Of a DNA stretch of 64,000 nucleotides, positions 16,296 through 42,860 are shown one piece after another; positions within the stretch are counted from its first letter, which is position 1, and the number at the start of each line of letters is the position of its first letter. The notes beneath the pieces are model-generated. The model did no database searches. It was not told where the DNA came from and saw only the letters and a program-made list of their open reading frames with translations. A program made the position numbers and the translations under genes. The stretch comes from Oligoflexia bacterium (GTDB lineage Bacteria > Bdellovibrionota > UBA1018), in the NCBI GenBank assembly GCA_903895855.1, contig CAITVN010000072.1:67932-131931 (forward strand), in the 5' to 3' direction.

Positions 16296-17390
16296 TTAGC
16301 AAATTCGAGGCAACTGCTCGCCGCTCGGCATATCAAGAACCCGAGTCACCCCAATCAATCCCTCGATCAAAACCCGAGACCGCCCACCTGATTCAACAGC
16401 CCCAATTTCGCAACTTTGTTCACCCACTTCGAAGCGTTTCATCACCTGAAGGGCTCTTTCAACATCACTTTCAGGCACAAAGGCCACTAGCCTACCCTCA
16501 TTAGCCACCGACAAAACATCTAAACCCAACATCTCGCATGTGCCCCTCACCTCAGCCAAAACTGAGACCGCACTCTCGCGAATTTTGATTTCAACTCGAG
16601 CCTTTTGGGAGATCTCATTGAGTGCACTCACCAACCCACCTCGAGTCAAGTCTCTCAAACAATGTATTTGAACTCCCGCCTCAACTAACGCCAAAACCAT
16701 CGGCGATAACGGCGCACAATCACTTCTAATGGTAGTCTCAAATTGAAGTCCTGACCGCGCTGCCATGATGGCAATGCCGTGGCGGCCGAGATCACCACTA
16801 ATTAGCACACGATCTCCCACGCAAACGCTACTCGGCTCAATTTTCAGTGAATGCTCAATTACTCCTACACCAGCCGTATTGATGTACACTCCGTCGCCTT
16901 TGCCTTTTTCGACAACTTTAGTATCACCAGTAACTATTTTAACACCCGAAAGGTCTGCCGCGATTTTCATCGAGCGCACAACTTTAATCAAACTCTCTAT
17001 TGAAAATCCTTCTTCTAAAATAAACCCAGCACTCAAATACTGGGGCCGAGCGCCACTCATCGCGAGATCGTTTACCGTTCCAAAAACCGCAAGCCGACCG
17101 ATGTCTCCACCCGGAAAAAAAAGTGGGTTCACCACATAAGAATCAGTCGTAAACGCAATGCGCCCCGAAGGCATCGGTAGCTGTGCACTGTCGTGCTCAT
17201 TTGACAAAAATTCATTCGTGAACTCTTTGGCAAAGAGTTCTTGTATGAGTTTTTGCATCGTGCGACCGCCGCCGCCATGAGCCATCACGATTTTTTCTTG
17301 AGCAGAAAACCCGGTGTGAAAAGGAATGGGGCAATTGAGAAATTCAGTCATGACTCGACACTCCTTCGATAGCGATAATAAGCCGAACAC
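16296..17390 (-). CDS. hypE: hydrogenase maturation protein HypE
   Basis: 364 aa AIR-synthase-related fold. The C-terminus ends in the PRIC motif characteristic of HypE. Confidence 0.9.
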
Positions 17391-18448
17391 GCACCTTCTG
17401 ACGAAACCATCGGCGCTCCCATCGGATTCTCAGGATTACACGAAACACCAAATGAAGGGCACTGCGAAGGTTTTCTCACCCCCTGAAGAATCAAGCCACT
17501 CATGCACTGAGGATTTTCTAAGCTCGTTTCATCTCTTAAATTAAATTTCTTTTCAGCATCAAATTTTTCGTATTTTCGAGCCAGCCTAAGTCCACTTTCA
17601 GGAATGGTACCTATGCCTCTCCAATTCTTGTGAAACACTTCAAAGACTTCACCTAAGAGTTTTTGTGCGTGAAGGTTTCCCTCAGCTCTCACCGAACGCG
17701 TGTACTGATTTTCGAGGGCAAAATTTCCTGACTCTAACTGAAGCACACACATCAAGAGTCCCTGCAAAATATCAAGAGGTTCAAACCCCGTAACGACAAT
17801 CGGCACTCGGTACTTGGTCACCAATGGCTCATAGCCTGCCATACCCATCACCGTACACACATGCCCCGGAGCGAGAAACCCCTGCACTCGATTTTCAGGC
17901 GACGACAAAATCGCGTCAATTGCAGGCGGTACCAAGACCTGTGACACGAGCAATGAAAAATTCGTTAACCCAAGTTGAGCGGCGTTCATCGCAGCCATCG
18001 CATTCGCCGGGGCGGTGGTCTCGAAACCAACGGCTAGAAAAACCACTTCTCGCTCACGATTGTCTTGTGCCACTTTGACAGCATCAAGCGGAGAGTAGAC
18101 AACTCGCACATCAGCACCCTCGGCTTTTGACTTCAACAAATCGGTTGAAGTACCGGGCACCCGAAGCATGTCACCGAACGAGCACAGAATAACATTCTTA
18201 TTCAAAGCGAGGTCTATCGCCGAATCAATCACAGAAACTGGAGTCACACAGACCGGACAGCCGGGACCGTGTATGAGATTGACTTGGTTCTTTAGAAGCT
18301 CATCAATGCCATACTTAACTATTGAATGGGTCTGTCCTCCGCAGATTTCCATGATATTCCACGACCGGGTCGCAGCACGAGAAATCGCATTCACATACTC
18401 TTTGGCCAGCGAAGCATCTCGATACTCGTCAATGAATTTCAAATTCAT
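17348..18448 (-). CDS. hypD: hydrogenase maturation protein HypD
   Basis: 366 aa with conserved GPGCPVC and CGxH-type cysteine motifs. Overlaps hypE by 43 nt. Confidence 0.9.
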
Positions 18449-18720
18449 AAAGGCATACCTGCCTTTTTTTCGGCAAACTCTTCATTTTGAGATTTGAGAT
18501 AGTCAAAAACAAATTGAGCTTCAACTTCGTCAATGACCGAAAGGGCAAACCCAACGTGAATGAGCACGTAATCACCGACTCTGGCCTCGGGCACAAAAGC
18601 CAAACTCACTTCTTTGACTACGCCGCCGATACTCACCCGTCCAACGGCAGTCAACTCACTTTCATTACCCAACTCAGGAAGCGAAATTTCAATGAGCTTT
18701 GCAGGAACTGAAAGACACAT
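18445..18720 (-). CDS. hypC: hydrogenase maturation protein HypC
   Basis: 91 aa beginning MCLSVP, the HypC MC(L/I)(A/G)(I/V)P motif. Confidence 0.85.
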
Positions 18721-18751
18721 GATTAAAACCTCTTTATTCTATACTCACCAC

Positions 18752-21088
18752 TCAACCCACCGAACACCCAAATGCCCGACTGGCCGCCTGGCCAACAGAA
18801 AGGCCCCCATCATTGGGAGGCACCCGATGGTGCCAATAGGCAGCAAACCCCATTTGCTGAAGCCGATCAATAGCCAGTTCAGAAAGTACGCGATTTTGAA
18901 AGCACCCTCCCGTCAACAAGATACGGCTAACCTTTGAACGCTGAGCCATGACGCCAATCGCATGAGCGAGAGTCAGATGAAACTTCAGTGAGATTTCAGA
19001 AACATGAACCCCAAGTTCTTGATCTTTGATGACTTCCTGAATGAACGAACCCCAGTCAACTGTACCATCAGTACCGATTGACACCGAGTAGGGCCGAGGC
19101 AAATCGCCGCCGGCTAACAAAACCTGCGCAGCCAATGCCTCAATTCTCATTGCAGCTTCGCCTTCATAGCGACTCACCTGCACCACACCGAGTAGAGCAG
19201 CCACGCCGTCAAAGAGTCTACCCACACTGCTCGTTAAGGGCGAATTGATTTTTTTCTCTATCATCGTATGAATGAGCACGAGGTCGTGATCACTTAACCC
19301 GTGACCGAACCGCGAGCAAAGCGCAAGAAACCGGTCAAGATCTCCGCACGCAAGCTCTCGCATCATGCTCACGGCCGAAAGCCTCGGCTCTTTCACCGCC
19401 TTTTCGCCCCCAGGAAGCGCAAACTGCCGAAGACTGCCCACGTGTTCGAATCCTTGTGAATGAACGACCAAGAACTCTCCACCCCAAATCGAACCGTCGA
19501 GCCCGTAGCCACTTCCATCCCAAGCGACACCGAAAACAGCCTCGGCCTTCTCACGAGCCAGACCAAGCGCTAGTTCATTATCTACCAAACACGATAAAAC
19601 ATGAGCGTGGTGATGTTGAACCAAAACCCGAGTTAGCCCCACCCATTCTCGCGATTCGAGAATTTGGCTCGTGAAATATTCCGGGTGGCGATCACAGGCA
19701 AACTGAACTCGGTCAGCACCAAAATTTTCTACAGCTTTCGATAGGCCCGTTTCATAATCATCACGAGCGTTGACCGAATCGAGATTACCAAAGTGGGGCA
19801 TTAAATTTATATATCTATTATTTAATAATGATAAGGTGTTTTTTTCCTGGCCACCCAAACCAATGATGAAGTTTCCCGGAACCTTCAACCCCAATTCTAA
19901 CTTCAAGGGGGCATAACCACGCCCAGCCCGAAAAACGGTTTCTTGACCCGATATTTCGCGCACAACCGAATCGTCGACACGAGAAACGATTTTGCGATCA
20001 TGAACTAAAAACCCATCAGCAACACCAAAGAGAACACGCAAGGCTTCAGATTTTTCAAAACAAATCGGCTCGTCAGCAATGTTTGCGCTCGTCACCACTA
20101 ATGGCCTACCAAACGCTTTCATGATCAGGTGGTGAAGCGGCGTATAGGGCAATAAAACGCCCAAAGTAGAAAGCCCTGGTGCGACAGTATCAGCTATAAA
20201 GCGATACTCACCCACTCGGTTCAACAGAACAATCGGAGCCCCCACGCTCGCGAGCATTCGCGACTCAACATCAGACAATGCACAGAGTGCTCGCACTTCA
20301 CTCACACTCGCAATCATGACTGCAAACGGTTTACTCTCTCGCTTCTTTCGTTCTCGAAGTCGCTGCACGGTCTTGTTGGCCCCAGCATCACAAACTAAAT
20401 GAAATCCACCAATACCTTGAATGGCTAGAATTTGGCCCGCATTCAAGGCATCAACCACACCTAGCAGGGCTTGTTCGCGAGTTGAGACCACACCACCGCC
20501 ACCATCTATCAACGTCAATGACGGCCCGCACTCAGGGCAAGCGTTGGGTTCGGCATGAAAACGCCGATCACTCGGATCATCGTACTCAGCTTGGCAGCTG
20601 TCGCACATTTTGAACTCACCCATACTGGTATTCGCCCGATCGTAAGGCAGCGCCTTTATGATGCTATACCTCGGACCACACTCAGTACAATTCGTGAACG
20701 GATACTGAAAACGCCGATTTTTGGGATCAAAAATCTCTAAACAGCATTTCCCACAGGTCGCCAAATCGGGCAAAATTTCTGCATCAGATTCACCGTCGGG
20801 CACCGCAACAACACTCGAAGTCAGAATGCTGAACTCGTGATCATTTTGAAGTTCGATTTGCCAGCTCTCATTTTTTCGCAAACTCGCATTTCGCGGAAGC
20901 TCACTACTCAAGCGCGAACTGAATGCATCGACTGAAGTCAGTAGCCCCTCAACTTCAATTTGGACACCTTTTTTCGTATTTTTGACAAACCCAGAGAGGC
21001 TTAACTCGCACGCTAGCCGATAGACAAAGGGCCGAAACCCAACCCCCTGAACTCGCCCCTGCAGGTTAAATACTTTTCGAATCTTCAT
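18752..21088 (-). CDS. hypF: carbamoyltransferase HypF
   Basis: 778 aa with an acylphosphatase-like N-terminus, two Cys-rich zinc-finger repeats, and YrdC-like and Kae1-like domains. Confidence 0.9.
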   Translation of the reverse strand: MKIRKVFNLQGRVQGVGFRPFVYRLACELSLSGFVKNTKKGVQIEVEGLLTSVDAFSSRLSSELPRNASLRKNESWQIELQNDHEFSILTSSVVAVPDGESDAEILPDLATCGKCCLEIFDPKNRRFQYPFTNCTECGPRYSIIKALPYDRANTSMGEFKMCDSCQAEYDDPSDRRFHAEPNACPECGPSLTLIDGGGGVVSTREQALLGVVDALNAGQILAIQGIGGFHLVCDAGANKTVQRLRERKKRESKPFAVMIASVSEVRALCALSDVESRMLASVGAPIVLLNRVGEYRFIADTVAPGLSTLGVLLPYTPLHHLIMKAFGRPLVVTSANIADEPICFEKSEALRVLFGVADGFLVHDRKIVSRVDDSVVREISGQETVFRAGRGYAPLKLELGLKVPGNFIIGLGGQEKNTLSLLNNRYINLMPHFGNLDSVNARDDYETGLSKAVENFGADRVQFACDRHPEYFTSQILESREWVGLTRVLVQHHHAHVLSCLVDNELALGLAREKAEAVFGVAWDGSGYGLDGSIWGGEFLVVHSQGFEHVGSLRQFALPGGEKAVKEPRLSAVSMMRELACGDLDRFLALCSRFGHGLSDHDLVLIHTMIEKKINSPLTSSVGRLFDGVAALLGVVQVSRYEGEAAMRIEALAAQVLLAGGDLPRPYSVSIGTDGTVDWGSFIQEVIKDQELGVHVSEISLKFHLTLAHAIGVMAQRSKVSRILLTGGCFQNRVLSELAIDRLQQMGFAAYWHHRVPPNDGGLSVGQAASRAFGCSVG

Positions 21089-21093
21089 CTCAT

Positions 21094-21825
21094 CTAATTC
21101 GCAACCGAACCCAGTCGAACGTAGTCAAGCCACGCATCTAAGCCCTGGCCAGTCTTCGCACTCAAACACAAAATCGGAGCGGCTGCGTTCACACCGCGTA
21201 TGTGCTGAACACAGGTCGCAAAACTGAACTCTAGATACTGAACCAGGTCGATCTTAGTGATGACAATGAGATCAGCCTCATGAAAGAGTAACGGGTACTT
21301 CGATGGTTTGTCTTCACCCTCGGTTGTCGATAGTATGGCAACTTTTCGGCTTTCTCCCAAATCAAACGACGCTGGACACACCAAATTACCCACATTCTCA
21401 ATGATCAGGTGACTAAACTCTGGCTTCACAAATTCACCCAACTCGCCTCGAATCATCGCAGCGTCTAAATGGCACGAACTTGCTGTATTCAATTGCTTGA
21501 CCTTCGCGCCAGCGGCCTCAAGCCTCTTAGCATCAAAGTCTCGTTCTTGATCTCCAACCAGAATGCCAAGGTTGATCGAGTCCTTCAAGCGAGTACTCGT
21601 TTTTTCTAAGAGCAGCGTTTTTCCAGAGCCCGGAGCACTCATCAAGTTGAACACCAACAGCTTGTGATCTAAAAACCATTGGCGATTGGTTTCTGCAATT
21701 TTGTTATTCTTATCTAAGATCGACGTCTTAACTTCAATTTTTCGAAATTTTAAATTTTCTTTTTCTCTTCGAATCTCTTCAAATGCGACTTTATTGGCTT
21801 GTTGGCAACCGCAGTCTATACACAT
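21094..21825 (-). CDS. hypB: hydrogenase nickel-incorporation GTPase HypB
   Basis: N-terminal MCIDCGCQ metal-binding motif and GSGKT P-loop. Confidence 0.9.
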   Translation of the reverse strand: MCIDCGCQQANKVAFEEIRREKENLKFRKIEVKTSILDKNNKIAETNRQWFLDHKLLVFNLMSAPGSGKTLLLEKTSTRLKDSINLGILVGDQERDFDAKRLEAAGAKVKQLNTASSCHLDAAMIRGELGEFVKPEFSHLIIENVGNLVCPASFDLGESRKVAILSTTEGEDKPSKYPLLFHEADLIVITKIDLVQYLEFSFATCVQHIRGVNAAAPILCLSAKTGQGLDAWLDYVRLGSVAN

Positions 21826-21854
21826 AAATCAACCTTTCTCAGCGTTCAACTCTG

Positions 21855-22100
21855 TCACAGAACATCTAAGTCAATGATTCGAAAGTCTCGACCCAGTTTC
21901 ACAAAATCTAAAATCAATTGAGCTTCTTCTAAGATCGACCCTTTGCAAACTTCTGGAAAGCAAAATTCAAAACAGTGCCGATCGACACCGCTCAATTCTC
22001 CGAGCTCTAAATGAATTTTGACCACCCGCTCAAATTTTTCTCGCACCGCAATTTCGGCAACCTGTTCGACAAGCGCCGTTGCTAATGAAAGCTCATGCAT
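21855..22100 (-). CDS. hypA: HypA-like nickel insertion protein, truncated (no zinc-finger domain)
   Basis: 81 aa with an MHE N-terminus (Ni site) and a HypA-like helical N-domain. The ORF stops 29 nt before hypB, and no CxxC...CxxC zinc motif is present. Confidence 0.7.
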   Translation of the reverse strand: MHELSLATALVEQVAEIAVREKFERVVKIHLELGELSGVDRHCFEFCFPEVCKGSILEEAQLILDFVKLGRDFRIIDLDVL

Positions 22101-22566
22101 CGAACACCTTCGACACTTCGTTGAGTGCAGCCGCTAAGTTCAATCTTGCTGCTGGCGTCAAACCTTCTTCTAGATTCCATTCGTAACCCAAAACTGCCAA
22201 TAGAAAGGTTCGAGGCATTCGTCCATATAACTTCTGACACAAATTCAACACAGCACCAGGGCTCATCGAGTGGCTGGTAAACGCGAATTCGTCTTCGGGG
22301 GTCACCTCTCGAAACTGGTATGGCCAACTAACCCCTTTTTCTTGGCTAGCGTCAACAAAGACCACGATCTCATACTCAGAAATAAGCAGGGCGTCTTCAA
22401 CGTTGAGTTGATAATTCGAATCAAACGCCGCCCAAGCAGGTAAACTCTTCTTCTGAAGCTGCTCAATCACTTCGACCCCCAACGCATCGTCTCGACGCCC
22501 CGGGTTGCCGATTCCGTAAAATAAGACACGGTCACTAGGCTTTCGAGCCAATACTTCGAGGTTCAA
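22093..22566 (-). CDS. hoxW: hydrogenase maturation endopeptidase (HoxW/HybD family)
   Basis: 157 aa with VLFYGIGNPGRRDDALG, the HycI/HybD protease signature. Confidence 0.8.
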   Translation of the reverse strand: MNLEVLARKPSDRVLFYGIGNPGRRDDALGVEVIEQLQKKSLPAWAAFDSNYQLNVEDALLISEYEIVVFVDASQEKGVSWPYQFREVTPEDEFAFTSHSMSPGAVLNLCQKLYGRMPRTFLLAVLGYEWNLEEGLTPAARLNLAAALNEVSKVFDA

Positions 22567-24038
22567 GTGCCTGCTCCGTCAAAGTCACCCACATTTTTAA
22601 TTCTGCGGTCAAGTTGATTGCCGTCCAAATCCTGCAAGACCAGCTCTAAAGGCATCTGCCCAACTGCATGAGTCGCACAACTGAGACAAGGGTCGTAGGC
22701 ACGGATAGCAACTTCGACTTGGTTCAGCATTCCCTCAGGAATTTCCTTATGACCGTTGATCACCTTTTGTGCAACCCAAGTCACCCCGCGATTCATGGCC
22801 TCATTATTACTCGTCGTTGAAACAATCAAATTACATAGGGTGATCTGGTCATTTTGGTCGACACGGTAATGGTGAAATAAAGTGCCTCGCGGGGCCTCAA
22901 GAACCCCAACCCCTTCGCCCGACCTCTCACCGGTTTTGACCAGTTCTCCGTGAATGATATCGGGATCTTTCAAAAGCTCGCGAATCATCTCAATGGCATG
23001 CAACGCTTCAATGAGCCTTGCCCAGTGCATGTGCATCGACATGCCATTGGGTTTACCTTGAGTATAGGCTTTGTACTGCTCAAATTCTTTTTGTGCTAAC
23101 GGAGTCGGAATGAAGTCACAAGTGTTGAGCCGCGCTAGTGGGCCCACTCGATACCAACCCTTTTCAGAGCCCAGCGAAATAATGTGTGGAAACTTCATGT
23201 AAGTCCAACTGCGAACTTCTTCTGTGATGTAGTCGGAATAGTTTTGATAATCGACTTGATCAAAAATCTTTGCGCCGTCGCTATCAACGGCTCGCAAAAC
23301 GCCGTGATACAAATCAAGAGCCCCATCTTTTCGTACTAAGCTCAAGTAATTTGATGAAAATGCGGCAAAACCATCAATGAATTCGTGGTTCTTCTTGTGA
23401 TAACCTTTGAACAATTCAAGACCCTCTTGAATCCAGTCAACCATCAGGTCAACGTTAAATTCTGGAGTCCCCACCAACAACTGGTCGCGCTCTTCGGGCG
23501 TCAGTCTCTTATTCACTCCCCCCGGAATGGCTCCGGTGCCATGAATTTTCTTTCCAGCCGTCAGGTGAATCACAACTTGGCCAAATTTTCGCATCAAAAC
23601 AGCTTTTTTAGCAATCTCGGGAAATGCACCAATCACGCCGATGATATTTCGCTTGAGAGGATCTGAATTGACACCGAACAAGAGATCGGGCGAAGCCAAA
23701 TGAAAAAAATGTAAAACATGAGACTGAAAAAACTGACCGTAATGCATGAGTCGGCGCATTTTGTCAGCCGTAGCAGTTAACTCACCCGATGAGGTGCCCA
23801 CTATCACATCCATTGCTTTTGAGGCACACAACTGATGACTGACCGGACAAATGCCACAGAGCCTTTGCACAAGCACTGGCGCTTCCCAAAAGGGACGCCC
23901 CTGCACAAAGCGCTCAAACCCTCGAAATTCAACGATATGAAGCCTACTTTGAACGACCTGATTATTGTCATCAAGCTTGATCGTGACCTTGCCATGCCCT
24001 TCGACTCGAGTAATCGGTTCTATGGTTATTTTTCTCAT
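22563..24038 (-). CDS. hoxH: [NiFe]-hydrogenase large subunit, NAD-reducing/bidirectional type (HoxH)
   Basis: N-terminal RVEGHG and RLCGICPVSH motifs. C-terminal DPCLSCATH is followed by a cleavable extension. 491 aa is typical of group 3 enzymes. Confidence 0.9.
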   Translation of the reverse strand: MRKITIEPITRVEGHGKVTIKLDDNNQVVQSRLHIVEFRGFERFVQGRPFWEAPVLVQRLCGICPVSHQLCASKAMDVIVGTSSGELTATADKMRRLMHYGQFFQSHVLHFFHLASPDLLFGVNSDPLKRNIIGVIGAFPEIAKKAVLMRKFGQVVIHLTAGKKIHGTGAIPGGVNKRLTPEERDQLLVGTPEFNVDLMVDWIQEGLELFKGYHKKNHEFIDGFAAFSSNYLSLVRKDGALDLYHGVLRAVDSDGAKIFDQVDYQNYSDYITEEVRSWTYMKFPHIISLGSEKGWYRVGPLARLNTCDFIPTPLAQKEFEQYKAYTQGKPNGMSMHMHWARLIEALHAIEMIRELLKDPDIIHGELVKTGERSGEGVGVLEAPRGTLFHHYRVDQNDQITLCNLIVSTTSNNEAMNRGVTWVAQKVINGHKEIPEGMLNQVEVAIRAYDPCLSCATHAVGQMPLELVLQDLDGNQLDRRIKNVGDFDGAGT

Positions 24039-24040
24039 TT

Positions 24041-24595
24041 TTAGTCGTACCTCACTAAATCAAAATTGAGTTCATCGAGAGATTTTCCGGCGATCAAAAG
24101 ATTCAAGGCTTCCCACAGGAGATCAGCTCTTGGTGGGCATCCAGGTAAGTACCCATCGATCTTCACAATCTCATGACAGGGGTAGACTCGATCGAGTAAC
24201 ATCGGAATTTCTTCATCGTTCGGTATTTGAGAACTTTTGCTGTCTACAGTCGGGCCAGTTAAGAAAGCCTCTTTAAATAATTCAGCTACCGGAATGCCAT
24301 TTCGAAGAGCGGGTAAACCACCAGTAATGGCACATTGGCCGACCGACACTAAAATTTTGCAGTGTTTTCTAAAGTCTCTCAACACCCTGACATTTTCGCT
24401 ATTGCAGCAACCGCCTTCAATCAGGCCAATGTCACACATTTGAGTGAACTCTTTAATATCGTCGATCGGTGATTTGTCGAAAGTGACCAACTCTACTAGA
24501 TCTAAGATTCGCTCATCAATATCGAGAAGTGACATATGGCATCCGAAACAGCCCGCAAGTGAAGTGGTCGCCAGCACTAATTTTTTCTTTTTCAT
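24041..24595 (-). CDS. hoxY: [NiFe]-hydrogenase small subunit (HoxY)
   Basis: 184 aa with Cys motifs for the proximal Fe-S cluster (GCFGCH, GCP). Short group 3 small subunit. Confidence 0.85.
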   Translation of the reverse strand: MKKKKLVLATTSLAGCFGCHMSLLDIDERILDLVELVTFDKSPIDDIKEFTQMCDIGLIEGGCCNSENVRVLRDFRKHCKILVSVGQCAITGGLPALRNGIPVAELFKEAFLTGPTVDSKSSQIPNDEEIPMLLDRVYPCHEIVKIDGYLPGCPPRADLLWEALNLLIAGKSLDELNFDLVRYD

Positions 24596-25290
24596 AGCTG
24601 TTTACCATCCTTCTCATGTTTGCGATCAAACCGCCTCTGACCAATGGGCACCCGAAAGCCAACACGTTTTTGAATCAATGCGCCTACCGGGCAAATTTCC
24701 ATCGCTTTTTTTGCCGTCGCTTCTGAGACCGCCTCCGGATCAGTGACATCCACGGTGATTCGAACATCACTTCCCCGGCGCATGAATCCGAAAATTTCAT
24801 GCCCATCTTTCGCACGAACCCCGCGAACACAGCGCAGGCACTGAATGCAACGCTTATGCTCGATAAATAAGTGCGCCATTCGCGCTTCAACCTTCTGAAC
24901 CGGAAACAAAAACGGATATCGAGGCACCACAATTCGATAGTGATGGGCCAACTCTTGCAATTCGCAATTACCGCTCTTTTCACAGCTAGGACACATGTGA
25001 TTGCCCTCGACAATGAGCATTTCTACTAGAGCTCGTCTAAGATCAGTGAGCTCAGCGGTTTCATTCTCTACGACCATGCCGTTGACCGCCGGACTCGTAC
25101 AACCAGGCACAAATCGCCCTCCAACCTTTACCGTACAAACGCGGCAAGTTCCGGCAGGACTCAAACTTCGAAAATCACAAAGGGTCGGAATAAATAGTCC
25201 ATTCTCGCGCGCGGCCTGAACAATGCTCTGGCCCTCTTTGGCAACACACTCTTTTCCGTCAATCGTTAGACTAATTTGGCCTTGTTCCAT
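24592..25290 (-). CDS. hoxU: diaphorase Fe-S subunit HoxU (NuoG N-terminal-like)
   Basis: 2Fe-2S ferredoxin N-terminus plus 4Fe-4S cysteine clusters (CIQCLRC). Confidence 0.85.
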   Translation of the reverse strand: MEQGQISLTIDGKECVAKEGQSIVQAARENGLFIPTLCDFRSLSPAGTCRVCTVKVGGRFVPGCTSPAVNGMVVENETAELTDLRRALVEMLIVEGNHMCPSCEKSGNCELQELAHHYRIVVPRYPFLFPVQKVEARMAHLFIEHKRCIQCLRCVRGVRAKDGHEIFGFMRRGSDVRITVDVTDPEAVSEATAKKAMEICPVGALIQKRVGFRVPIGQRRFDRKHEKDGKQL

Positions 25291-27142
25291 CTACCACCTC
25301 ACTATCAATTTCAAGATTGGGTTTTCGGTTAGCAGCTACGCAAGAATCAATCACAGCAAACTTCAAATCAAACTGCGACAAGAAGTCGACATCTGCTCGA
25401 ACTTTCTTTTGATAAATCTCAGTGAAATTTCGAATAGTACTCAACAACGGGTGCGGTGAGCTCTGACCCAATCCGCAGCGCGAGGTGGCTTTAATCGTTT
25501 TGCCGAGCTGCTTTATATTTTCAATATCAGCGGCGGTTCCGTTTCCAACCATGATTTTCTCTAGTGCCTTAATTAGAAGGGTATTGCCCGTTCGGCAGGG
25601 AACACAGAAACCACAGCTTTCATCTTCAAAAAACTCCATGTAGTTGTGAACAATCGACAGAAGATCGCGTTTTTGACCAAAAATAGTGACGGCGCCACCA
25701 GTCGATAGATCAGAAAAACAAAGTTTTCGATCGAATTCATTCTGCGAAATACACTGGCCTGATGGCCCCCCCACCTGAACCGCTAAAACATCTTTCGCGC
25801 CACAAATTGCCAAGAGCTCGCGAATCGACATTCCCCACTCCACTTCGTAAATCCCCGGTCGTTCACAATCACCCGCGACACTGAGAACTTTCACGCCACT
25901 CGATGCTGGGGTGCCCATTTTTCTAAACCAAGCAGCACCGTTTAAAATGATTTTTGCGGCGGCTCCGAAAGTCTCAACATTATTGACGATGGTTGGCCTT
26001 CGAAGGTATCCCGAAGTCACCGGATACGGCGGTCGATTTCTCGGCTGACCTCGCTTACCCTCAGCCGACTCAATGAGCGCCGACTCTTCGCCACAGATGT
26101 ATGCACCAGCTCCAACTTTAATCTGAATATCAAAACTAAACCGAGTGCCTAATATTCGGCGGCCCAACAAATGTTCTTGGCGCATCTTTGTCAGAACATT
26201 CTCTAAATAATCCTTCAAATAGGCGTACTCGCCCCTCAAATACAAAATTCCGTGTTTGGCTTCGATAGCATAGCCAGCGACTGCCATTCCCTCAAAAATC
26301 AATTCAGGCATTTCGGTAAGCAGCACTCGATCTTTAAACGTACCGGGTTCACCTTCATCAGCATTGCACATGACATAGCGAGTTTCAGACTCGGCAGCCC
26401 GACAAAAACCCCATTTTTGGCCCGTATCAAAGCCAGCACCGCCGCGCCCTCTCAAACCAGACTGTTTGACTTCATCGATCACTTCGAGCGCTCCGTGATT
26501 CATCGCAGCTTTTAATGCGGTACCTGGTTCAAAATCGGTAAAGAACACTGGCCCTCGAACTCGAATGTGATTAGACACTTCAGCATGAATTTCTTCTAGT
26601 GCATTTTTACCATCGCCAAGCGACTCAACGAGATCTCGCACGGGCCGATTGGCTTTCATACCAGCGACTATTTTTGTGACTTTCGCGTCAGTCATTCGGG
26701 TGAAAACTACATCATTAATTAGAATCGCAGGCTCTTGATCGCACATGCCAATACAAGAAGTTGTTCTCAAACCGATCTGCCGATCACTCGTCGTTTCTCC
26801 GAATGAGATGCCCACCTCTCTTTCGAATGCCTTGACTATCGCATGAGAACCCGCCATCTCGGCAGTCGCACTAGTGTTCACATAAACTGTGTAATTACCC
26901 CGATGAGTGCGCGAAAGAAAATGATAGAATGTAGCAACTCCCTCAACATGAACGCGCGAGAGATCCATTTCTTCGGCGATGAGAGTGATTACTTGCGGCG
27001 ACAAGTGCCGCCATCTACTCTGACATTCGCGCAAAACAGCCAAAAGTTGTGTTCTATCACCGCGAACCTGATCAATGATTTCGATGATGACATTTCGAGT
27101 TTCGTTCAAATCAAGAATCGTTCTCTCGTTCATGCAGAACAT
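25271..27142 (-). CDS. hoxF: diaphorase flavoprotein HoxF (fused NuoE-like and NuoF-like)
   Basis: 623 aa with an N-terminal thioredoxin-like 2Fe-2S domain and a C-terminal NADH/FMN-binding domain (GAGAYICGEESAL) with a 4Fe-4S site. Confidence 0.9.
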   Translation of the reverse strand: MFCMNERTILDLNETRNVIIEIIDQVRGDRTQLLAVLRECQSRWRHLSPQVITLIAEEMDLSRVHVEGVATFYHFLSRTHRGNYTVYVNTSATAEMAGSHAIVKAFEREVGISFGETTSDRQIGLRTTSCIGMCDQEPAILINDVVFTRMTDAKVTKIVAGMKANRPVRDLVESLGDGKNALEEIHAEVSNHIRVRGPVFFTDFEPGTALKAAMNHGALEVIDEVKQSGLRGRGGAGFDTGQKWGFCRAAESETRYVMCNADEGEPGTFKDRVLLTEMPELIFEGMAVAGYAIEAKHGILYLRGEYAYLKDYLENVLTKMRQEHLLGRRILGTRFSFDIQIKVGAGAYICGEESALIESAEGKRGQPRNRPPYPVTSGYLRRPTIVNNVETFGAAAKIILNGAAWFRKMGTPASSGVKVLSVAGDCERPGIYEVEWGMSIRELLAICGAKDVLAVQVGGPSGQCISQNEFDRKLCFSDLSTGGAVTIFGQKRDLLSIVHNYMEFFEDESCGFCVPCRTGNTLLIKALEKIMVGNGTAADIENIKQLGKTIKATSRCGLGQSSPHPLLSTIRNFTEIYQKKVRADVDFLSQFDLKFAVIDSCVAANRKPNLEIDSEVVDGTRPN

Positions 27143-37553: not shown

Positions 37554-38597
37554 TCATGTCGATTCTTTCATCACCAAAGCCATTGCGACCACCAGGAGCG
37601 AGAGAACAGAGGGTAAAACAAAGAGAAACAAAGGCTTGATCGCCCGAGTGGGTAGCGTCGATAACCCCTTCTTGAGCTCTGAACTCCAATTGATTTGAAA
37701 CGCCTGAATTGAAGCCCCAATGCGATCTAGGCAGGGCCGCCCATCAAAAAGGCTCGCCCGAATCGAAATGAGCAATTGCTCACGAAAATCGCTCACCCAG
37801 AAAGGAAGTGATTTAAACTCGTCGGTTTCATAAGAATGACGCGTTTCAAATCGAAAGGGCCCCCAAAAATCAGCGAGCAAACTCGAATGTTGGGCTAGGG
37901 TTTCTAGCGTTTGATTCCAACCTCGGTCGGCGGGCTCACCCGCTTTGATTTGACTCATCAATTTCTCGGCACCTGCCATCAACCAAATCGGCCAATCTTT
38001 TTGTGAAGCATTCAAGCCGACTGAAAAAATCAGGTCGATTTCGCGACTAAGAAAATAGGCACCTAACACCGACCAACTCATCGAAAACAGAACAACGCAA
38101 AACCACAAGGCACTGTCAGCCGAAATCACATCCAGGAGCGCATAGAGCCCGGCTCCAGTGATCGGAACCAACAAGAAACAAATCCAGATCTGAGCACGAG
38201 CTGGCGCCGCTAACGCGTGAGCCTCAGCTAGAGTTTGGTGACTCAGCTCAATCAGCCCTTTGAATCGGTCAAAAACAGGAATGATCGAAGCCCCTCTTTT
38301 TCGCAGTTGATCGACACACTCAAAAAGCACCCCACCCCAGGGAGTAGGTAACGACTGAACCGCACTGCCCCAGTTCTCAGGCAGACTCAAGCCCACTTCG
38401 AGTCTCGATTTCAGATCTCTGATCACTTCTCGCACTTGCTCAAGCTTTGTTAGCGCGACGAAACTCGGGTTCTCTTTTCTAAAAATGAAGCTACGGAGAG
38501 CTGAAACCGAGAACCAGCTCTTTGCTGCCAAGATTAATAGTGCCACCGCGACTGACCAGGCAAAGTAAGATGAAGCCATAAGGTCTTTGCTATTCAA
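37554..38597 (-). CDS. polytopic membrane protein, hypothetical
   Basis: 347 aa with about four TM helices and two soluble loops. TTG start. It might be a TadB/GspF-like platform protein, but I cannot support that from motifs. Confidence 0.4.
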   Translation of the reverse strand: MNSKDLMASSYFAWSVAVALLILAAKSWFSVSALRSFIFRKENPSFVALTKLEQVREVIRDLKSRLEVGLSLPENWGSAVQSLPTPWGGVLFECVDQLRKRGASIIPVFDRFKGLIELSHQTLAEAHALAAPARAQIWICFLLVPITGAGLYALLDVISADSALWFCVVLFSMSWSVLGAYFLSREIDLIFSVGLNASQKDWPIWLMAGAEKLMSQIKAGEPADRGWNQTLETLAQHSSLLADFWGPFRFETRHSYETDEFKSLPFWVSDFREQLLISIRASLFDGRPCLDRIGASIQAFQINWSSELKKGLSTLPTRAIKPLFLFVLPSVLSLLVVAMALVMKEST

Positions 38598-38725
38598 GAG
38601 CTATTCCAGCCGGAGAGGACTCGCCTACGGTTGCACTCGGCACTTCTGTTGGCCAAAGCAACTCCAGGCTCTGAGAGAAGGGGCGGCTCCATGCCTGACC
38701 AGCCCCTCACAAATGGAGATTACAT

Positions 38726-38813
38726 GGGAACTGAAATTTTTGGAGCTCCCGCGTCGCACGATGCGACATGGCGGGCGACAACACGATGTTGGTCTCTAAA
38801 AATTTCAGTTCCC
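38726..38813. repeat. 16-bp perfect inverted repeat (GGGAACTGAAATTTTT / AAAAATTTCAGTTCCC) enclosing a 56-nt palindrome-rich core
   Basis: The arms are at 38726-38741 and 38798-38813. The core contains GGAGCTCC, GTCGCACGATGCGAC and CAACACGATGTTG palindromes, and two CACGATG heptamers. Confidence 0.8.
38774..38813 (+). repeat. copy 1 of a repeated intergenic element (GGCGACAACACGATGTTGGTCTC plus AAAAATT(T)CAG tail)
   Basis: The 23-nt core is identical to 42030-42052. The tails are similar (TAAAAATTTCAGTTCCCATTTAAT versus AAAAATTCAGAGTTCAATTTTTAAT). Confidence 0.8.
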
Positions 38814-38909
38814 ATTTAATCTCTATTTGTGGAGGAAGCCTCAGGCTGGTAGATAACCCCACGCAACCGTCGAATGACTCTCTCTACGCGCCACGCGCTC
38901 GCGAGTTCA

Positions 38910-39191
38910 TCAAATTTTTGACTGTACAGGTGGTCTGCCTGGCAAGCGAAACACCAAATCACCTAGGCTACCCAGAAGCCGATCGCACTCCTCGAGGTAT
39001 TTTTCAGGAACCTGAAGCTCCATATCGCGAAAATGGTCGGTAATCGGACCCGGTAGCGTCGAATAACTGACGATTCCATCTTGAGCTTCGAGAACCGTGT
39101 AGAAAAAGGCTGAATCCTCTTTTTTTACACGAACGAAAACCCAATAGACTCCTTTTGAAAATTCTGGGGCTGGATGCAGTTTTTCAGGCAT
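38910..39191 (-). CDS. small hypothetical protein
   Basis: 93 aa with balanced composition, divergent from the cpoB-like gene. Confidence 0.4.
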   Translation of the reverse strand: MPEKLHPAPEFSKGVYWVFVRVKKEDSAFFYTVLEAQDGIVSYSTLPGPITDHFRDMELQVPEKYLEECDRLLGSLGDLVFRLPGRPPVQSKI

Positions 39192-40164: not shown

Positions 40165-42026
40165 AATCGACACCGAAAATCAAGCTGATCTTAGTCGCAG
40201 TTACCGCGGTGAATTTTTCTCAAGCAACTGCGGCTATCGCAGCCACTTCGGCAACAGTGAGTCAAGAACAAGAGGCCGCGAGGCTGGCTAAGCAACTCAA
40301 GCCCATTAACGATGCCACTTGGAGCACCGTCGCTTCAGCGAAAGCTACCGATCGGTACACCGTTACCAAAGGCGATACCCTTTACGATTTATCAAAAAAA
40401 CTTTTCAACGATTCAAAATACTGGCCGAAGCTTTGGGCGGTCAACAATGGCAATATTTTAAATCCTCACCTGCTCAAGCCAGGAATGACGATCACCTTTT
40501 CAAGCGGTACGGCGACCCAATTGCCCGAGGTCTCTGTTAATGATCCGAACGCTCTCATCACCCGTAGCGGATCAGCAACCAAGAACAGCACGGCGTCTGC
40601 TGCTACAGCGATGGCTTCGGCAGGCGAAACGAAGTCTGACGCTTCGGGATCGAGTGAGGCATCACCTTCAGTTTCAGGTGACTCAGGTGACACTCCAAAA
40701 AAGCGCTCCGAAGAATGGAAAACTCTGCCCGTTCAGTCTTGGGAATCAACCAACTTGAAACTGCCAGCAGGCGTCGACCGCGATGGGTTTGACGGCCGAA
40801 ACGCTCGCTTTAAGATTGCCCGAAAAACTGGGTTTGAAATTGAAGCGATTGCGGCGACTGATCGACTTGCTCACCTGGGGCGAATCATCGGGTCGCGCAC
40901 TGAAGCCTCGTTTCTCTCAATTGGCGATACCGTTTACATTGAAGCAGACGAAGAAATCAAAATCGGCGAGACTTATGTCATCACTAATGACCCCCAAAAA
41001 CTCAAATCTCGCAAATCTGACCGAACTGGCTACTCGTACAATATTTTAGGCCAAGTTCGAATATTGGGTGTTCGAGACAACCTTTATATTGGCACGATCA
41101 TTTCAGGCAAAGACGTCAGCTTTCGCGGAGCCGTTCTGATCAAGAATCAACTGAGAATTCCACAGATGGATGCCATCGCCGGCCCTGAATCAATTGAGGG
41201 CGTCTTGATGCTGAATAAAACCATTTCAACCTACGCGACGGCTCAGCACAAACTAGTCTTCATCGATAAAGGTTCAGACGATAAAGTGCGGCCGGGAATG
41301 GTCTTTCGGGCCTACCAGCATTACGATCCGGGAAATGACAAGAAACTCACCAACGCCGATTTCATCATCGCCGCTGACATTCAAGTGGTTCAAGTGAGTG
41401 AAATGTTCAGCTCTGGAATTGTGATTCGAACGATGATGCCGATAACAGAAAATACGAGTGTCGTGCTACTCACCGATGTCGCTGACCTGAAGTCTAACAA
41501 GGGTTTCAGAGATCGTAGCCCAGAAGATCGACGAAAAGATCAGGAGCTCGACGACCTCGACAAGCTAGACGGTGGCGCCGCTCTGAAAAAAGACGAACAA
41601 AAAGAATTGAAACAGCTTGAACAGTGGAAGCAAAACCCGGGAGAAGCCCCCGCAGCCCCTGGAGTACCCGCCGGTGAAACCAAAGGCAGTGAAACTAAAG
41701 TTGACGACACGAAAGGCACTCAGAAGCCCGAGCCAAAATCTGACTCAAACTCAGACGCTGCACTCGACTCTCTGGCTCCGCCTTCGGGAGATAGCCCGAG
41801 CCCCGCTGCGACTCCCCCCGCTGCGGCCACACCGCCAGAGACGGCGCCGCCATCGGGCGCAGGAACTGAGTCGCTTGCACCGCCGCCTTCGGCACCTGCT
41901 TCTAGTGAAGCCGTACCCCCAGCGCCGGCAGCGCCCGCAACTGAGACGGCGCCACCAGCACCAGCAACTCCAACGCCGGGAACTCCGCCCCCAGGGGCAG
42001 AAGACTTGGCTCCGCCATCGAATTAG
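40161..42026 (+). CDS. LysM-domain protein with Pro/Ala-rich repetitive C-terminus
   Basis: Signal peptide, LysM (YTVTKGDTLYDLSKKLF...WPKLWAVNN) and a C-terminal PAPA-rich tail with the SLAPPS motif three times. Confidence 0.7.
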   Translation: MKSTPKIKLILVAVTAVNFSQATAAIAATSATVSQEQEAARLAKQLKPINDATWSTVASAKATDRYTVTKGDTLYDLSKKLFNDSKYWPKLWAVNNGNILNPHLLKPGMTITFSSGTATQLPEVSVNDPNALITRSGSATKNSTASAATAMASAGETKSDASGSSEASPSVSGDSGDTPKKRSEEWKTLPVQSWESTNLKLPAGVDRDGFDGRNARFKIARKTGFEIEAIAATDRLAHLGRIIGSRTEASFLSIGDTVYIEADEEIKIGETYVITNDPQKLKSRKSDRTGYSYNILGQVRILGVRDNLYIGTIISGKDVSFRGAVLIKNQLRIPQMDAIAGPESIEGVLMLNKTISTYATAQHKLVFIDKGSDDKVRPGMVFRAYQHYDPGNDKKLTNADFIIAADIQVVQVSEMFSSGIVIRTMMPITENTSVVLLTDVADLKSNKGFRDRSPEDRRKDQELDDLDKLDGGAALKKDEQKELKQLEQWKQNPGEAPAAPGVPAGETKGSETKVDDTKGTQKPEPKSDSNSDAALDSLAPPSGDSPSPAATPPAAATPPETAPPSGAGTESLAPPPSAPASSEAVPPAPAAPATETAPPAPATPTPGTPPPGAEDLAPPSN

Positions 42027-42029
42027 GTT

Positions 42030-42078
42030 GGCGACAACACGATGTTGGTCTCAAAAATTCAGAGTTCAATTTTTAATG
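42030..42078 (+). repeat. copy 2 of the repeated intergenic element, 3 nt after the LysM gene stop
   Basis: Same orientation as copy 1. It lies between the convergent LysM and rdgB genes. Confidence 0.8.
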
Positions 42079-42176
42079 TAGTCTGGAAGACGCGTCACGC
42101 TAGCCGGAAACCTACTCCCAAGTTTCTCACCGAAAGCTGATCAGTTGACCAAAGGTGATAGGCCTATTTTGAAAGG

Positions 42177-42860
42177 TCAAGGCTTCGAAAGGATGATGCC
42201 CTTAGGGCCCAACTGAGCCATCAGACCTTGAATGGCCTTGGCTCGGTGGGACATCGAATTTTTTTCTGTTGCAGTCATTTCTGCCAGCGTTTTCGAATGA
42301 CCTTCGGGAATAAAAACACCGTCGTACCCAAATCCCATTGAACCTCTCGGCTCACTTGAAATCGTGCCTTCAAGCACGCCCTGAGCATGAATCAAAATAC
42401 CTTCCATACAAAGGCTGACGACACACACGAACCGAGCTGTTCTAGGAGCACCCGGCGATTTTTTCATCTCGCTTAACAAAAGTTCAATATTCGCTCGGTT
42501 TTGCTCTTCTCTTGAGACAGCATAAGGGCCAACCTTGGCAAATCGAAAGCTATGAACCCCCGGTTTTCCGTTCAAACTGTCAACTTCAAGTCCGGTATCG
42601 TCAGCAAGCGACGGAAAATGAGTCGCATGATTAATCAATCTGGCCTTAGCCATCGAATTTTCGAGGTAGGTTTGGTGATTCTCAACCTGGCCAATTTTGT
42701 CTGAATTTCTCACCAAATCAGCAACTTTCACCAAGGTTACATTGGGAAATGCCGAGAAAATGGCTTTCATTTCCTCAAATTTATCAGAATTATTGGACGC
42801 AAAGACAACTTGTTTTACCAATCTCACTCGAATTAACCCCTTTTTGTGTTCGTAATCCAA
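42177..42860 (-). CDS. rdgB: non-canonical purine NTP pyrophosphatase (RdgB/Ham1)
   Basis: VVFASNNSDKFEEMK N-terminal motif and the Ham1 fold. Confidence 0.8.
   Translation of the reverse strand: MDYEHKKGLIRVRLVKQVVFASNNSDKFEEMKAIFSAFPNVTLVKVADLVRNSDKIGQVENHQTYLENSMAKARLINHATHFPSLADDTGLEVDSLNGKPGVHSFRFAKVGPYAVSREEQNRANIELLLSEMKKSPGAPRTARFVCVVSLCMEGILIHAQGVLEGTISSEPRGSMGFGYDGVFIPEGHSKTLAEMTATEKNSMSHRAKAIQGLMAQLGPKGIILSKP

Follow-up and report, generated by a model that had tools for sequence, protein, structure and literature searches.

In a 64,000-nt stretch of DNA from an Oligoflexia bacterium (GenBank assembly GCA_903895855.1, contig CAITVN010000072.1, positions 67,932 to 131,931; hereafter the window, with positions counted from its first letter), the spacer between two minus-strand genes carries a nested palindrome of ∼181 nt, located at 38680-38860. 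This element is not a stand-alone small RNA (sRNA) gene. The evidence presented below favours the view that it belongs to a new, lineage-specific family of dispersed non-coding nested-palindrome repeats, in the class of REPINs, ERIC sequences and MITEs (miniature inverted-repeat transposable elements). Each copy consists of an invariant 56-nt core with two CGA-looped hairpins, which caps a more AT-rich stem of 50-65 bp. As intergenic repeats of bacteria go, the element is of a fairly common type, apart from the unusual fact that conservation lies in its tip and not in its ends.

Anatomy and folding of the nested palindrome

Minimum free energy folding of the element in the window (copy 1), both as RNA on either strand and as DNA, predicted a single long hairpin spanning 38680-38860. 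Its two arms of 53 nt, located at 38693-38745 (left) and 38794-38846 (right), are 81% complementary to each other and separated by 48 nt. They contain a perfect inner stem in which 38724-38741 pairs with 38798-38815. A previous reading of this DNA, made from its letters only (the sequence-only reading), had described this inverted repeat with a length of 16 bp; the repeat is present and measures 18 bp. Further closure at the base of the hairpin is provided by GGGG/CCCC pairs between 38680-38683 and 38857-38860, and the AGGGGC/GCCCCT stem that had also been proposed for this region turned out to be no more than an alternative local fold, in competition with the basal part of the long hairpin. 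Perfect inverted repeats of at least 14 nt within 120 nt were absent from all 30 shuffles of the window, and copy 1 is the only long inverted repeat in the 64 kb. When the 312-nt spacer outlined by the sequence-only reading was folded, the plus strand gave −141.3 kcal/mol (z = −8.2) and the minus strand −139.2 kcal/mol (z = −6.8). The 181-nt element folded as single-stranded DNA gave z = −11.4. Assemblies of several samples, made with MEGAHIT, by scaffolding or taken from Logan, contained the same element sequence. At position 38723, the window has a C that breaks a stem pair; the other assemblies with that arm (contigs L001, L004 and L025) carry an A, which pairs with T38816, so that 26 bp of the stem are perfect.

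The tip of the hairpin is the invariant GC-rich core (38742-38797; 56 nt, 64% GC), which is predicted to form an apical three-way junction on either strand. The arms provide the first helix of this junction, the second is a CCCGC/GCGGG helix bearing a GTCGCA-CGA-TGCGAC hairpin and the third is a CAACA-CGA-TGTTG hairpin. The former hairpin (mini-hairpin 1, GTCGCACGATGCGAC, 38753-38767) and the latter (mini-hairpin 2, CAACACGATGTTG, 38779-38791) have stems of 6 and 5 bp respectively, loops of 3 nt and a common CACGATG centre, and mini-hairpin 2 lies in direct orientation relative to mini-hairpin 1. A further sub-palindrome, GGAGCTCC, occupies 38742-38749. All three palindromes from which the core had been said to be built were therefore found. 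As for the GC content, which had been described as visibly raised, the excess is real and modest, the fraction being 0.57 in 38600-38799 and 0.47 in the window as a whole. It comes from the core (0.64); the arms (0.45 and 0.39) both lie below the window mean.

The sequence-only reading had entertained a structured sRNA, with a U-rich stretch on the plus strand as its 3′ end. That stretch (ATTTAATCTCTATTT, 38816-38830), which belongs to the right arm, base-pairs with AAATGGAGATTACAT (38709-38723) in the left arm and is thus enclosed in the stem. A search of the whole window against Rfam 15, whose families include riboswitches, produced no match at the gathering threshold. In E-value mode only generic miRNA-precursor hairpin models were returned, with 22-31 bits compared to gathering thresholds of 79-100. 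No promoter-like or terminator-like site was detected within the element. Given the lack of a free U tract and of promoter or terminator signals, a stand-alone sRNA with an intrinsic terminator was rejected, as were a terminator, 6S RNA, Y RNA and a ribozyme, on their defining features and the lack of an Rfam match. That both strands fold with about the same strength and that the orientation of the element is not fixed (see below) also count against an sRNA. The two overlapping open reading frames (ORFs) with TTG starts reported for the spacer do exist. Gene callers in several public assemblies also annotated a 91-aa ORF at 38768-39043 on the plus strand, which starts at an ATG within the core and continues antisense through the neighbouring DUF4911-like gene; this ORF is almost certainly spurious. 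Classifying the element as a repeat, and not as a regulatory RNA gene, prevents a false sRNA annotation.

Copies of the element and conservation of the core

The host DNA searched for copies amounted to ∼82 kb and comprised the window, extensions beyond both of its ends and the locus of an HtpX gene. It contains two full copies and one half copy, that is, at least 2.5 copies, and neither BLAST nor a covariance model based on both full copies revealed any additional one. Copy 2 was traced via contig L003, where the foreign sequence that follows the core encodes an HtpX/M48 protease, and contigs with HtpX were then fetched. It is located at L018:3657-3806, downstream of the HtpX/M48 gene and between this and a convergent 442-aa gene whose product is not a PmbA homologue. 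The arms of copy 2 (51 nt, 48 nt apart) differ in sequence from those of copy 1, are 94% self-complementary and yield a fold with z = −14.2. Its core (L018:3704-3759) is identical to that of copy 1 at 56 of 56 positions.

The half copy (42030-42112) comprises the 3′ half of the core and a diverged right arm. Recurrence of part of the core downstream had already been observed in the sequence-only reading and was confirmed, with 96% identity over 28 nt at 42030-42057 and, when extended to 42112, 72% over 85 nt; at the positions shared with the core, 23 of 23 are identical. The covariance model matches this half copy weakly. The half copy begins 4 nt past the stop codon of a LysM-protein gene, and its truncation corresponds to positions 38773/38774 of copy 1, ∼4 nt from the symmetry centre of the palindrome (38769.5), which is where breakage at a hairpin tip would be expected to fall, in this single case. 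The DNA for the C-terminal region of the LysM protein (41700-42026) has 67-73% GC, the GC peak of the neighbourhood, and encodes a Pro/Ala-rich low-complexity sequence. Every copy of the element lies 4-50 nt from a stop codon, and the orientation of the core relative to the neighbouring genes varies between copies.

Comparison of the copies revealed very different degrees of conservation in core and arms. When the arms of copy 1 are set against those of copy 2, homology is apparent in the proximal ∼22 nt (∼70% identity), where every difference, including one indel, is mirrored on the opposite arm, with the exception of positions at which a G/A difference results in a G.U pair in copy 1. The distal ∼27 nt, in contrast, give alignments of no higher quality than those of shuffled sequence. 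Homology between the right arm of copy 1 and that of the half copy extends over the full arm (∼68%) and reaches ∼38858. By our own arithmetic, had the core diverged at ∼30% as the arms did, 56 identical positions would be expected with P ∼2e-9. The invariance of the core compared to the divergence of the arms indicates therefore that the core is held fixed, by selection or by conversion between copies, and the complementarity within each copy indicates that pairing of the stem is maintained, either by selection on a folded strand or by arm-to-arm correction of DNA. This invariant tip on drifting paired arms, as seen in 2.5 copies, is the one unusual feature of the element. No 'empty' palindrome without the core was seen: all three members of the arm family carry it, for which reason the idea that the core is a recent invader of older palindromes was rejected for now.

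Outside the host, a scan of GTDB species representatives and JGI metagenomes for an exact 20-mer of the core returned nothing but chance matches, located within coding sequences of unrelated organisms. There was no match in viral contigs (40-mer scan) or in phages and plasmids (blastn), and the concatenated six reading frames of the core had no match in the protein collection at E ≤ 10. At the corresponding loci of the two nearest relatives with long contigs (L032 and L033), neither the core nor a long hairpin was present. From these absences, both at the loci of relatives and in sequence collections, it follows that the element is lineage-restricted and is not a conserved non-coding RNA of the locus.

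The pattern of conservation could also be produced by a functional structured RNA, a helix that presents the conserved apical junction as a binding platform and that acts either in cis, as a processing or stability signal on the transcript from the DUF4911-like gene to the downstream 341-aa gene and in 3′ UTRs, or as an sRNA. In accordance with this explanation, the fold z-scores of copies 1 and 2 are very strong, the core is invariant and the stems vary with two-sided compensation, and all copies lie just downstream of genes, where they are likely to be transcribed. In addition, three G.U pairs on the plus strand of copy 1 become A.C mismatches on the other strand. However, this wobble evidence is mixed: wobble-type positions number three on the plus strand and two on the minus strand in copy 1, and one of each in copy 2, so that neither strand is favoured, and both strands fold almost equally well. 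An RNA function also has to contend with the paired state of the U stretch, with the lack of a promoter, a terminator and an Rfam match, with an orientation to flanking genes that is not constant, with the persistence of a truncated half copy and with the fact that the element is not kept at the syntenic site of relatives. Moreover, complementarity between the arms of a palindrome can be maintained in DNA without any RNA function. On balance, we consider a functional RNA unlikely, albeit the least unlikely of the rival explanations.

Relation to known classes of repeats

The closest described precedent for such a dispersed nested palindrome is found in the dimers of repetitive extragenic palindromic (REP) sequences embedded in long palindromes, exemplified by GTAG-15 of Anabaena variabilis and CGTC-1 of Halothiobacillus neapolitanus, among which 'empty' palindromes were not encountered (Di Nocera et al. 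2013, PMC3733652). As in those dimers, a pair of short stem-loops is central to a far longer palindrome, and the units are dispersed and intergenic, lie near the 3′ ends of genes and have no empty counterparts. In contrast, the mini-hairpins of the element are direct and not head-to-head, their stems of 5-6 bp and loops of 3 nt are shorter than the 8-9 bp and 4-5 nt of CGTC REPs, and no sequence similarity to the published arm consensus of REP dimers was apparent when judged by eye (PMC3733652). A CGTC at 38752-38755 does start mini-hairpin 1; it is accompanied by neither a CCA tail nor a GTAG tag.

REPINs are REP doublets that form hairpins and are mobilised by RAYT tyrosine transposases, with hairpins that are preserved by compensatory changes (Bertels & Rainey 2011, PMC3116915). 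The element resembles them in being a dispersed non-coding unit of ∼100-180 nt with a predicted long hairpin in single-stranded DNA or RNA, in the compensatory changes that keep this hairpin and in the occurrence of singlet or half remnants. However, REPINs conserve 16-mers, or REPs, at the base of the hairpin and vary the spacer (PMC3116915), whereas in the element the centre is invariant and the arms vary. In addition, unlike REPINs, the element has no GTAG tag and no RAYT gene occurs within the window. A canonical REP, a unit of 20-40 nt with a GTAG or CGTC tag, or a REPIN was therefore rejected, on account of the direct mini-hairpins, the short stems and loops and the reversed pattern of conservation. 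The REP-like nature suggested by the sequence-only reading is broadly borne out, in the sense of a repeat element, by the 2.5 copies, the contigs of several assemblies that break in the core and the absence from relatives.

Similarities to other repeats are of a more general kind. ERIC/IRU sequences, YPAL palindromes and MITEs such as Correia and RUP (reviewed in PMC3184786) are, like the element, imperfect palindromes, 100-200 bp long and located in intergenic DNA that is transcribed, and a further likeness is their association with rearrangements. No sequence relationship of the element to ERIC/IRU, YPAL, Correia or RUP was established. The 127-bp ERIC consensus is not known to resemble the element, and the host phylum differs. 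Long hairpins are formed by the RNA of ERIC and Correia sequences and can serve as substrates for RNases. As regards MITEs as a class, the multiple dispersed copies expected of them were found (two full and one half in ∼82 kb), and conserved terminal inverted repeats were not, given that the outer ∼27 nt of the arms cannot be aligned and only the inner ∼22 nt are homologous. In the flanks of copy 1, only the palindromic TTAA/TA is present, with TTAA to either side of the inner stem in the variant of L001; because TTAA is itself palindromic, it is uninformative as a target-site duplication. A classical MITE was rejected since the outer ends are not conserved, no target-site duplication is clear and no transposase is encoded in the window or the fetched loci. 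Copy 1 could be explained as a MITE of ∼92 nt that had entered a palindromic target and duplicated TA/TTAA; copy 2 does not fit, and this idea was rejected.

The element also shares with integron attC sites the property that arm sequences differ between copies, each copy being self-complementary, a likeness which suggests that structure matters here rather than the sequence of the stem. Unlike the element, whose tip is invariant, attC sites conserve the base (R''/R' boxes, RYYYAAC ... GTTRRRY) and vary the tip. An attC site was rejected because no GTTRRRY is found at either hairpin base of copies 1 and 2 and there is neither an integrase nor a cassette array. A retron msr-msd was rejected as well, on the basis of the lack of a reverse transcriptase in the window, the DUF4911 and membrane-protein neighbours, the multiple copies and the 48 nt between the arms.

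Several observations weigh against a family of dispersed mobile repeats. Only 2.5 copies are documented in ∼82 kb, and no empty site was found at any of the three loci among the available strains. A clear target-site duplication is lacking, copy 2 having no direct repeat at any plausible boundary. The 64-kb window encodes no integrase, no reverse transcriptase and no transposase, a HUH/Y1 transposase of the RAYT type included, and the fetched loci of the host do not encode a transposase either. Furthermore, an invariant tip with variable outer ends is the reverse of what is found in MITEs and REPINs, in which the ends bound by the enzyme are conserved, and the invariant core could instead reflect a function for the host, as RNA or as a protein-binding site.

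We nonetheless consider such a family the most likely explanation, in which case the element would most likely have spread, now or formerly, as a non-autonomous element that folds as a single strand. A trans-acting enzyme would presumably recognise the folded element via its invariant apical core, and copies would tend to persist where insertion is harmless, just 3′ of genes. On the transcript that runs from the DUF4911-like gene to the 341-aa gene, the element would form a long double-stranded RNA hairpin, a plausible target of RNase III or a barrier to exonucleases. At the DNA level, the same sequence would probably behave as a fragile, recombinogenic palindrome. If the tip-conserved pattern holds genome-wide, it would point to structure-specific recognition, distinct from the recognition of ends by which MITEs and REPINs are handled, and the element would in addition offer a compact case, occurring in nature, of genome instability centred on palindromes, in an uncultured phylum of predatory bacteria.

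The locus, its junctions and other features of the window

Copy 1 lies in the intergenic spacer 38580-38909, between a 93-aa DUF4911-like gene upstream (38910-39191, minus strand) and a 341-aa membrane-protein gene downstream (37554-38579, minus strand). The limits of the spacer follow from placing the start of the 341-aa gene at the ATG at 38579, which is the most likely start and the one used in gene calls of other assemblies. The 93-aa product has a weak Pfam match to DUF4911 and is 55% identical to the DUF4911 protein of L033. In relatives, pmbA is followed by a 353-aa gene, of which the 341-aa gene is the orthologue (28% identity over 296 aa, E = 5e-20). The host is an uncultured Bdellovibrionota/Oligoflexia-like bacterium: the best relatives of TopA are 71% identical and those of HtpX ∼60% (60% for L035), and they bear such names. 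The surroundings of HtpX in L035 were uninformative as to synteny. In both relatives used for the synteny comparison, L032 and L033, the gene order is secretin, T2SSE, 144 aa and 339 aa (forward), then 353 aa, PmbA/TldD and DUF4911 (reverse), and then TPR, 615 aa, DprA and TopA (all forward). The window has this same order minus pmbA/tldD, and the hairpin spacer occupies exactly the place of the missing gene, 38580-38909 corresponding to L032:1421-2973 and L033:4368-5939. As no tblastn signal of pmbA could be detected in the spacer, a pseudogene remnant was rejected. The half copy is found at a second difference from the relatives: a Ham1/RdgB gene (42177-42860, minus strand), which is not there in L032 or L033, lies between the LysM-protein gene and dprA, and the half copy is located at the left junction of this insertion (region 42027-42860).

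Contigs of the host that carry the 93-aa gene behave differently at the element. L001 and L004 match the window, L002 stops inside the core and L003 turns foreign after it. Altogether, L002, L020, L021 and L025 end in or at the core, and their end points coincide with the limits of the sequence common to the copies. Because the element is repeated, metagenome assemblies of the host break, or possibly mis-join, at these sites. Three contigs are hybrids (L003/L023 and L024), in which the core links the HtpX gene and left arm of copy 2, on one side, to the right arm of copy 1 and the DUF4911-like gene, on the other; in L024 the join is at 1150-1310. These hybrids were found only in contigs of 1.8-1.95 kb, in two sequence backgrounds, from assemblies that probably re-use the same samples, and represent either real recombinants between copies or assembly chimeras. 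L024 has a distinct HtpX allele and eight single-nucleotide polymorphisms clustered in the DUF4911-like gene. Compared to the window, all eight lie within 46 nt (39084-39129) between nearly identical flanks, a pattern suggestive of recombination over a short tract or of a hypervariable patch. Two contigs with the 341-aa gene from hybrid-bearing samples, L026 and L027, both stop at 38661, which lies 19 nt beyond the base of the hairpin. These ends are not accounted for by the known limits of the repeat; a drop in coverage at the hairpin or another structural variant is possible.

Such junctions raise the possibility that the element is a site acting at the DNA level, where a dimeric regulator or recombinase would bind the palindromes of the core, the arms would promote cruciform extrusion and exchange at the core would cause rearrangements. 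The two invariant palindromes with their common CACGATG centre would suit a site of this kind, as would the swap of flanks exactly across the core in two backgrounds, the position of copies at synteny breakpoints (pmbA lost at copy 1, Ham1 inserted beside the half copy) and the cut of the half copy ∼4 nt from the symmetry centre. However, no recombinase or regulator gene lies nearby, the hybrids come with the small contig size and probable sample re-use described above, and they could be assembly chimeras or the result of ordinary RecA recombination across 56 identical bp. To our knowledge, moreover, the 3-bp spacers and half-sites of 5-6 bp are unlike the core sites of known tyrosine or serine recombinases. 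We therefore regard a DNA-level site as improbable, to a degree slightly greater than a functional RNA.

The same junctions would acquire a wider meaning if the family represented a new architecture of hairpin mobile DNA, made of a recognition module at the apical junction, formed by the two direct CACGATG-centred mini-hairpins, and a drifting paired stem, in which breakage or exchange at the tip drives gene loss and rearrangement. The movement of such DNA might proceed through a folded single strand and a HUH-type or other structure-specific enzyme, and events at its tip might lie behind the loss of pmbA, the Ham1 junction and the hybrid copies in this Bdellovibrionota lineage. We put this forward as a speculative proposal that is improbable. 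Finally, it is highly improbable that the palindrome arose by chance, is what decay has left of the lost pmbA gene or is an artefact of assembly, since, although the spacer lies exactly where a gene was lost, several assemblers and samples agree, a second full copy exists at an unrelated locus, shuffling yields no comparable inverted repeat and no similarity to pmbA is left.

The remainder of the window is ordinary chromosome, with flagellar, Mla, hyp/Hox hydrogenase, metK, secretin and ATPase, dprA, topA and aromatic amino-acid biosynthesis genes. The region 16296-27142 encodes a Hox-like NAD-coupled [NiFe] hydrogenase (homologues of the small subunits Nuo51/HoxF, HoxU and HoxY and of the large subunit) together with hypB, hypF, hypD and hypE, which may be notable in a Bdellovibrionota-like genome. 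A 51-nt quasi-palindrome at 17205-17255 (25-nt arms, 84% complementary) adjoins a 12-nt exact match to the core of the element (GTCGCACGATGC), the two together falling within 17205-17266; as both lie inside the coding sequence of the conserved N-terminus of hypE, this proximity is most likely a coincidence.

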